Shown here in pieces: positions 32,362 through 32,955 of a stretch of 64,000 nt of DNA (within the stretch, counting starts at the first letter, position 1; every line of letters begins with the position of its first letter). This DNA is from Octopus sinensis. Lineage: Eukaryota. The stretch spans positions 19,406,001-19,470,000 of the forward strand of contig NC_043018.1 of the NCBI RefSeq assembly GCF_006345805.1, written 5' to 3'. The notes below the pieces were generated by a model. It saw only the letters and a program-made list of their open reading frames with translations, did no database searches and was not told the origin of the DNA. A program made the position numbers and the translations under genes.

Positions 32362-32365
<4 letters not shown>

Positions 32366-32955
32366 ATTTATTTTACTAAGCCCTTTTATATAATGTAATA
32401 ATTTGAATTCACCTTAAATGGTCCCCTTGCATACTGAATACTTGGTGAAATTGATTAATAATTAATTAATTTTACCCTCAATTGTTGAAATTATAATTCA
32501 TCTCTCTCTATTTAATGCCTCGGATTTTACCGAAAAAAGCATAGTGTTTACTGATTTTAACCCACGCTGGTGGAAAGGGGAGAGCAGAAATTCTTCGCTT
32601 GCATATTTGAGTTTGCTGGCACTGTTAGTTTCGAGCAGATCTTCAGAAGCGATAAGAAGCCGAAAGGGTATGCTCCCACTTTCAGTGTTTTCAAATCCAA
32701 ACCAAGGAGTTCTGAGCTGATGATAGAAATGTCGAGTTGACTAATCTTGAAACGTACGTTCTCAAATAACCTTTGCATTTGATTTTTTAATGTCTTTACC
32801 CCCATACTTTCGTGAATTGAATTGAGCAAACACTATATGAGAGAGGTTTTCTTTAAGTATTAGAAATAGTTTTAAAAAAGTTTTTTTTAGCTACTATTTC
32901 TAATGAGTTCAGTATGCGGCAAAGTAATTTATTTTACTAAGCCCTTTTATATAAT
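32362..32955 (+). mobile_element. 561-bp terminally redundant, hammerhead-bearing element (retrozyme-like or non-autonomous Penelope-like)
   Basis: 33-bp direct repeat at 32362-32394 and 32923-32955; (TA)n on both flanks; nested complementary blocks. Confidence 0.7.
32713..32764 (+). ncRNA. Type-I hammerhead ribozyme
   Basis: ugag-CUGAUGA-[imperfect stem II aga..guc/gac..ucu]-GAAAC-GUAC-GUU-cuca; stem I ugag/cuca; palindromic helix III acguacgu; predicted cleavage after U32760. Confidence 0.78.

Follow-up and report, generated by a model that had tools for sequence, protein, structure and literature searches.

The 64,000-nucleotide stretch of Octopus sinensis DNA analysed here (the window) contains a 5′-truncated copy, 1.06 units long, of a hammerhead-bearing tandem repeat family that is young and non-coding and lies inserted in (TA)n. 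The family is very probably a non-autonomous hammerhead repeat mobilized by Penelope-like elements (PLEs). The main reading, to which a probability of about 0.6 is given, is that it is a non-LTR retrozyme for which a Penelope-like RT/GIY-YIG enzyme acts in trans, copying a predicted monomer RNA circle. The preliminary description of this DNA had likewise proposed a non-autonomous hammerhead retroelement, probably Penelope-mobilized, and that class, targeting of TA included, is supported. A literature search, with most subscription journals, Repbase and Dfam outside its reach, found no published description of the 561-bp family.

The copy begins and ends with an exact 33-nt direct repeat (32362-32394 and 32923-32955) of period 561, flanked on both sides by (AT)n, just as first reported; its features are collected in Table 1. 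The longest stop-free frame in the unit is at most 91 amino acids, in keeping with the earlier statement that there is no credible ORF. The conserved 3′ signal motif is likely to be the recognition site of the predicted enzyme. Elsewhere in the window, a second hammerhead-like motif on the minus strand at 22983 (approximately 22890-22990) has a long helix II insert and a palindromic helix III, and a minimal one, also on the minus strand, at 41208 (approximately 41150-41270) lies in an inverted repeat beside TA/TG microsatellites and resembles a Penelope end stub. A GC-rich 67-bp satellite (161 copies, 97% match) occupies 53202-64000, and its unit resembles dispersed repeats elsewhere in the window.

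Table 1. Features of the 561-bp unit and its setting, in window coordinates.
Feature	Position	Strand	Evidence
Full 561-bp unit of family A; the 5′ truncation point of this copy is 32362	32362..32922	+	97-100% identity to other full units
First 33 bp of the next unit (the terminal repeat), stopping at the short 3′ end of the family	32923..32955	+	End mapping and junction counts
“Tail” of about 100 nt, the interval from short to long 3′ end; contains the partner strand of the signal helix and the AT-rich hairpin 32444-32476	32395..32495	+	
Type I hammerhead motif; predicted cut 3′ of 32760 (GUU); U.U at the base of helix II	32713..32764	+	Motif and covariation
Outer helix I of the hammerhead	32704-32707/32769-32772	+	
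Strand predicted to capture 32761-32768, holding helix I open (ribozyme off)	32604..32611	+	P 0.68-0.81
Side hairpin 32858-32905 and conserved 3′ signal motif 32891-32919, common to all sister families	32858..32919	+	
(TA)n target, left half	32332..32361	.	
(TA)n target, right half	32956..32975	.	
Independent 5′-truncated insertion of sister family B, stopping at that family's own short 3′ end	31985..32090	+	

The hammerhead has the type I order, with helix I TGAG/CTCA, a CTGATGA box, helix II AGA/TCT over a U.U pair, a GAAA box, a palindromic helix III and a GUU site at 32758-32760. An Rfam scan of the window gave no match at the gathering score, and the 10 weak, unrelated matches at E ≤ 10 do not include any hammerhead family; the call is therefore based on the motif and its covariation. 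Among 12 sister-family copies, 95.5% of 132 cells are paired and 9 of the 11 hammerhead pairs have two-sided changes, including a swap of the core pair C3-G8 to U3-A8. Their covariation score is 0.687, compared with 0.307 for shuffled and at most 0.216 for slid controls, a score that is not a probability because the 12 rows are related and were hand-picked from the sister families. The type I hammerhead with palindromic helix III of the preliminary description is thereby confirmed as a motif, with cleavage predicted. The GUU site and the U.U pair suggest what is presumably a slow ribozyme. Natural variants have U-A, A.A or G-C as the basal pair of helix II and GUA or GUC as the cleavage site, and a coding element of the genome (L114) has a hammerhead of the same design, with U.U pair and palindrome. 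In one contig variant, position 32724 is G and 32760 is A (run X1, only guessed to be RNA; record 4, matching 32585-32790); with its GUA site, this variant appears closer to the textbook hammerhead than the window copy is.

A DNA search of the 2.72-Gb genome recovered full units with 97-100% identity among the 39 of 1465 candidates that were scored. The exact 23-nt hammerhead word has 788 matches in the genome and a looser motif adjoining the 3′ end has 14,814 (reversed control 0 for each); exact junctions of the short end with (TA)n number 948 genome-wide, related subfamilies counted in. Insertions were compared at 75 loci in all, including a C1 set made up of all 41 clusters of the hammerhead word on contig C1 (40 analysed, one duplicate dropped); as this set was picked by the exact 23-mer, short stubs and diverged subfamilies are missing from it. 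Duplicate loci (L006, L007, L013, L015, L022 and L072) were dropped before counting, L070 was merged into L069, 7 irregular loci are outside the 5′-end counts and 7 are outside the mirror test, and homopolymer columns were masked. Contigs of four runs guessed to be RNA contain the unit; they cover neighbouring repeats too, and ends, strand and level are not visible in contigs, so they weigh neither way on expression.

Eight representatives of the family and its relatives have periods of 526-566 bp and 45-92% identity, and are colinear over the whole unit. Sister family B (the 31985-32090 copy, L150 and L218) has a unit of about 560 bp, approximately 55% identical to that of family A, and a hammerhead with a U3-A8 core and a GUC site. 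Family E (L222-L229 and L232) carries the 3′ signal, mostly in very short or inverted stubs, and the one longer copy seen has a G-C-based helix II and a GUC site. In the family, hammerhead units follow one another in tandem, two or more in a row, compared with a single hammerhead in the window copy. Of the earlier picture of a larger, dispersed, microsatellite-targeted family, the (TA)n targeting stands; the family does not consist mainly of dispersed monomers, arrays being common, both tandem and inverted, with up to approximately 18 units per arm.

The 3′ ends of the insertions lie at one of two fixed sites, unit positions ~31-48 and ~130-136, which are separated by about 100 nt and where the unit runs into (TA)n, and the 5′ ends are spread over the unit. 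It follows that the 33-bp repeat, which had been taken as the signature of reverse transcription just over once around a circle, only marks the truncation of this particular copy, 594 nt from the short end. Circular permutation of the copy ends, put forward as a test of the circle, was likewise rejected, since the genomic copies share their 3′ ends. In the C1 set, 24 of the 27 two-armed loci combine a long end with a short one, a single locus has long ends on both sides and two are irregular, so that long and short ends are paired at 24 of the 25 classable loci (p = 8e-7), and at 44 of 48 over all loci. The arms are head-to-head in every one of 48 two-strand loci, and 25 of 46 head-to-head junctions overlap by at least 2 nt. 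Families B and C have the same two 3′ ends, judged by eye. By analogy, the long-plus-short footprint is that of the Penelope “tail” type.

Several other accounts of the ends were considered. Unit position 1 as a 5′ hotspot is unsupported: 2 of the 61 arm ends on C1 fall there, and query bias affects the best matches of the DNA search. One of the 61 5′ ends falls at the cut site (unit 395-405; 1.2 expected), and there is a mild excess at unit 386-425 (9 of 61, 4.3 expected, p = 0.03) in an interval that was chosen post hoc. Fold-back of one long-ended cDNA was rejected as a general source of the second arm, the short-ended arm extending further upstream in 16 of 41 loci.

Sequence variation among units bears on the template that was copied. 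The divergence of full units is 0.77% for 203 pairs from the same arm, 0.74% for 64 pairs across arms and 1.93% for 7861 pairs from different loci, and the nearest neighbour of a unit is in its own locus for 78 of 85 units (21 multi-unit loci, ties counted). Seventeen variants private to a locus are fixed in every unit that covers the position, 11 of them across both arms, and 163 private variants are unfixed, of which 147 are singletons. No scars mark the crossing of the cut site, where 9 of 185 units are changed (control median 8%). The sharing of one haplotype per insertion and the clean crossing of the cut site favour rolling-circle copying of one RNA. Template jumping from one cut linear monomer to another was also considered and rejected, there being neither scars nor a pile-up of 5′ ends at the cut site.

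In the 20 informative loci of 34 two-armed ones, 70 unit-specific variants are unmirrored in the other arm versus 4-5 mirrored. Four mirrored variants are in L054 (1258-4819) and one is in L028, with the inverted arms in register from their 3′ ends; at these loci either a multi-unit template or a fold-back copy is needed. L069 and L070 together (C1:157522785-157534227) comprise approximately 18 + 3 units with a period-4 higher-order repeat in units 7-18, and L036 has one mosaic unit. As far as these variants indicate, a monomer read repeatedly would fit most loci. The homogeneity of arrays could alternatively reflect parent arrays that were themselves young and uniform, duplication of DNA on the spot or polishing of the assembly, and part of the unit-specific differences may be assembly errors.

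Folded as a circle, the + strand of the unit has a minimum free energy of -141.2 kcal/mol (z -4.9), a value reached by none of 60 dinucleotide shuffles, as the preliminary description had expected of a rod-like RNA. The minus strand (-125.2, z -5.0) does equally well, so the z-score does not pick a strand. Three of the five nested complementary blocks originally listed (32429-38/32908-17, 32541-49/32828-36 and 32604-11/32761-68) are exact complements with ensemble probabilities of 0.64-1.0, and the side hairpins 32444-32476 and 32858-32905 both fold, with their G.U wobbles on the + strand. The other two blocks, 32628-35/32746-53 (one G.U) and 32640-46/32717-23 (one mismatch), have probabilities of at most 0.0003; being negligible, they give no prediction that the catalytic boxes are paired with the opposite arm, as had first been proposed. 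Instead, the 3′ strand of helix I is predicted to be captured by 32604-32611, and helix I forms with a probability of only about 0.08 in the ensemble.

All 8 representatives have stable folds (z -3.3 to -10.3, 15 shuffles each). In four divergent ones, the long-range pairs that lie within 4 columns of those of family A number 74/96, 63/92, 25/26 and 65/85 (shifted control at most 9); a strict projection keeps only 56-68% of pairs, compared with 31-53% when slid, and includes 8-15 two-sided changes per representative. The rod and the hammerhead are kept across families that are 45-57% identical.

The genome contains coding elements with RT plus GIY-YIG at the C terminus in open frames of 775-781 amino acids, which end in (TA)n and carry similar hammerheads. 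The cysteine motif of their linker suggests what we take to be the Neptune clade, a label that comes in part from PMC8557442. One young coding Penelope-like family (L107, 2174-5874, and L108-L111) has an RT/GIY-YIG frame of 781 aa, a further frame that overlaps it upstream, and a roughly 1-kb 3′ UTR in which a U3-A8 hammerhead variant lies. There is also an older, abundant GIY-YIG retroelement family, unlike the Neptune type, whose 3′ end is without the shared signal (L100:1477-1989 on the minus strand; L233-L262). A 13-sequence profile of the signal, run with nhmmer on 43 + 30 PLE-type loci, found it at the own 3′ end of a coding PLE in none of the 73, which are a small part of 5029 and 8019 candidates and exclude Naiad-type elements (N-terminal endonuclease); the mobilizing enzyme is accordingly a putative one. 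Searches with blastn and tblastn likewise found no autonomous partner, and the matches of these searches and of the profile are separate insertions or on the opposite strand.

The proposed mechanism would begin with + strand transcription of tandem copies and hammerhead cleavage 3′ of 32760, yielding 561-nt monomers. A host ligase would close the monomers, as in the model for animal retrozymes (PMC7229834), and the rod would keep helix I open, blocking re-cutting. The putative enzyme would bind the conserved signal and tail, cut (TA)n and prime at a pair of sites separated by about 100 nt, mostly one per DNA end, matching the ends that are observed. Each RT would then read round the template until a random stop, and the two cDNAs would be joined head-to-head, or one alone kept as in the window. 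A broader proposal, tentative and somewhat less probable than even, is that the clade (8 or more lineages, with identities as low as 45%, and approximately 15,000 signal sites) may constitute a genomic record of rolling-circle retrotransposition, in which a Penelope-type dimer primes both ends of the (TA)n break on a single circle with starts about 100 nt apart, and the conserved viroid-like rod is both the off-switch of the ribozyme and the loading site of the enzyme.

Alternatively, the same Penelope-mobilized repeat might be copied from uncleaved linear multimer transcripts, with a slow or secondary hammerhead and no need of a circle. PAc is a precedent, its dominant substrate in vitro being unprocessed RNA and hammerhead cleavage dispensable (PMC11167929), and the weak GUU/U.U features of the ribozyme and the mirrored variants of L054 and L028 point the same way. 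However, mirroring is seen in only 1-2 of 20 informative two-armed loci, private variants fixed over whole arrays need a one-unit bottleneck, and the hammerhead and the end-joining rod have been retained in families approximately 50% identical, all of which make linear templates rather unlikely.

It is improbable that a coding Penelope-like element so far unseen left the copies as truncated ends of its pLTR, which were then expanded locally as DNA. None of 40 C1 loci has a contiguous ORF upstream of the unit, but instead another unit, an inverted arm or flank; tblastn of three PLE proteins against 173 sequences matched 4 loci, all separate neighbours; and the colinearity of the eight representatives extends over the whole unit. 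These results have to be set against an insertion anatomy that is that of PLE ends, the derivation of vertebrate retrozymes from pLTRs (10.64898/2026.07.22.740005), a block duplication in L069, and the fact that the PLE loci examined are 73 of thousands of candidates. The preliminary description had named fixed ends mapping to the pLTR of a coding Penelope element as evidence against its own reading; fixed 3′ ends are present, and a coding parent was not found among the 73 loci. An endogenized viroid-like replicating RNA, captured once round, is more improbable still: despite the rod fold, the hammerhead held off and a size near that of viroid-like RNAs, the 3′ ends are fixed and unpermuted, the motif scan found no hammerhead on the minus strand of the unit, and hundreds to thousands of genomic copies are grouped in subfamilies with the scars of retrotransposition. 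Viroid-like RNAs replicate from RNA to RNA without a DNA phase, whereas this family has hundreds of DNA copies.

The retrozyme reading may be compared with known systems. For animal non-LTR retrozymes, circles, ligation by RtcB and mobilization by PLEs have been shown or proposed (PMC7229834), rolling-circle reverse transcription by PLEs is a stated hypothesis (PMC7229834; 10.64898/2026.07.22.740005), and only 1 of 9 frog dimers was cleaved in vitro (10.64898/2026.07.22.740005). The family resembles them, as so described, in that its tandem units do not code for protein and have a single type I hammerhead apiece, and in its low GC, self-paired fold, range from monomers to multimers and co-occurrence with PLEs; it also resembles axolotl HHR_Amex2 in the U.U pair at the base of helix II. 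By its sequence it falls within the definition of this already known class. It differs in that a pLTR parent was not found (73 PLE-type loci). The unit is longer than the tested animal retrozyme RNAs (170-400 nt), but the unusual size at first attributed to it is not upheld, as 561 bp is inside the 51-972-bp vertebrate range (10.64898/2026.07.22.740005).

A paired-off hammerhead, at first cited as a retrozyme trait, is described for plant LTR retrozymes, whereas the hammerheads of most animal retrozyme circles, some mussel ones excepted, are predicted to be free (PMC7229834). The predicted ribozyme-off rod thus sets the family apart from most animal circles and recalls plant LTR retrozymes and hammerhead viroids, in which a complementary strand blocks the hammerhead in a rod-like circle of similar size (PMC7229834). 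Unlike these, the family has a type I rather than a type III hammerhead, no LTR arrangement, and PLE-type ends in microsatellites; type III hammerheads in LTRs are absent, and 4-bp target duplications are unreadable in (TA)n.

PLEs are described as truncated at the 5′ end, present in inverted copies, provided at one of their ends with a tail of 30-40 bp, and biased towards microsatellites (PMC8557442), and PAc protein in vitro cuts and extends both strands, with two internal RT starts that bound the tail (PMC11167929). As with EN+ PLEs such as Neptune and Naiad (PMC8557442) and with PAc (PMC11167929), copies of the family are truncated at the 5′ end, form partial tandems, can have an inverted 5′ copy and, at one end, a tail, favour (TA)n, and have two internal RT starts. 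In contrast to EN+ PLEs, the unit has no ORF for RT plus GIY-YIG or otherwise, its tail is about 100 nt rather than 30-40, and its arrays reach approximately 18 units per arm. The traits that appear unusual in the family are thus the tail of about 100 nt and the conserved predicted ribozyme-off rod; the window copy itself is an ordinary truncated member.

The mobility of retrozymes by way of a circle, a borrowed RT and tandem cDNA is a published hypothesis with little direct evidence. In O. sinensis, a young and abundant family marks both RT start sites and the template haplotype over many insertions, and it supplies a defined RNA, a target and a predicted product for an in vitro assay of a Penelope-type protein from the same genome.
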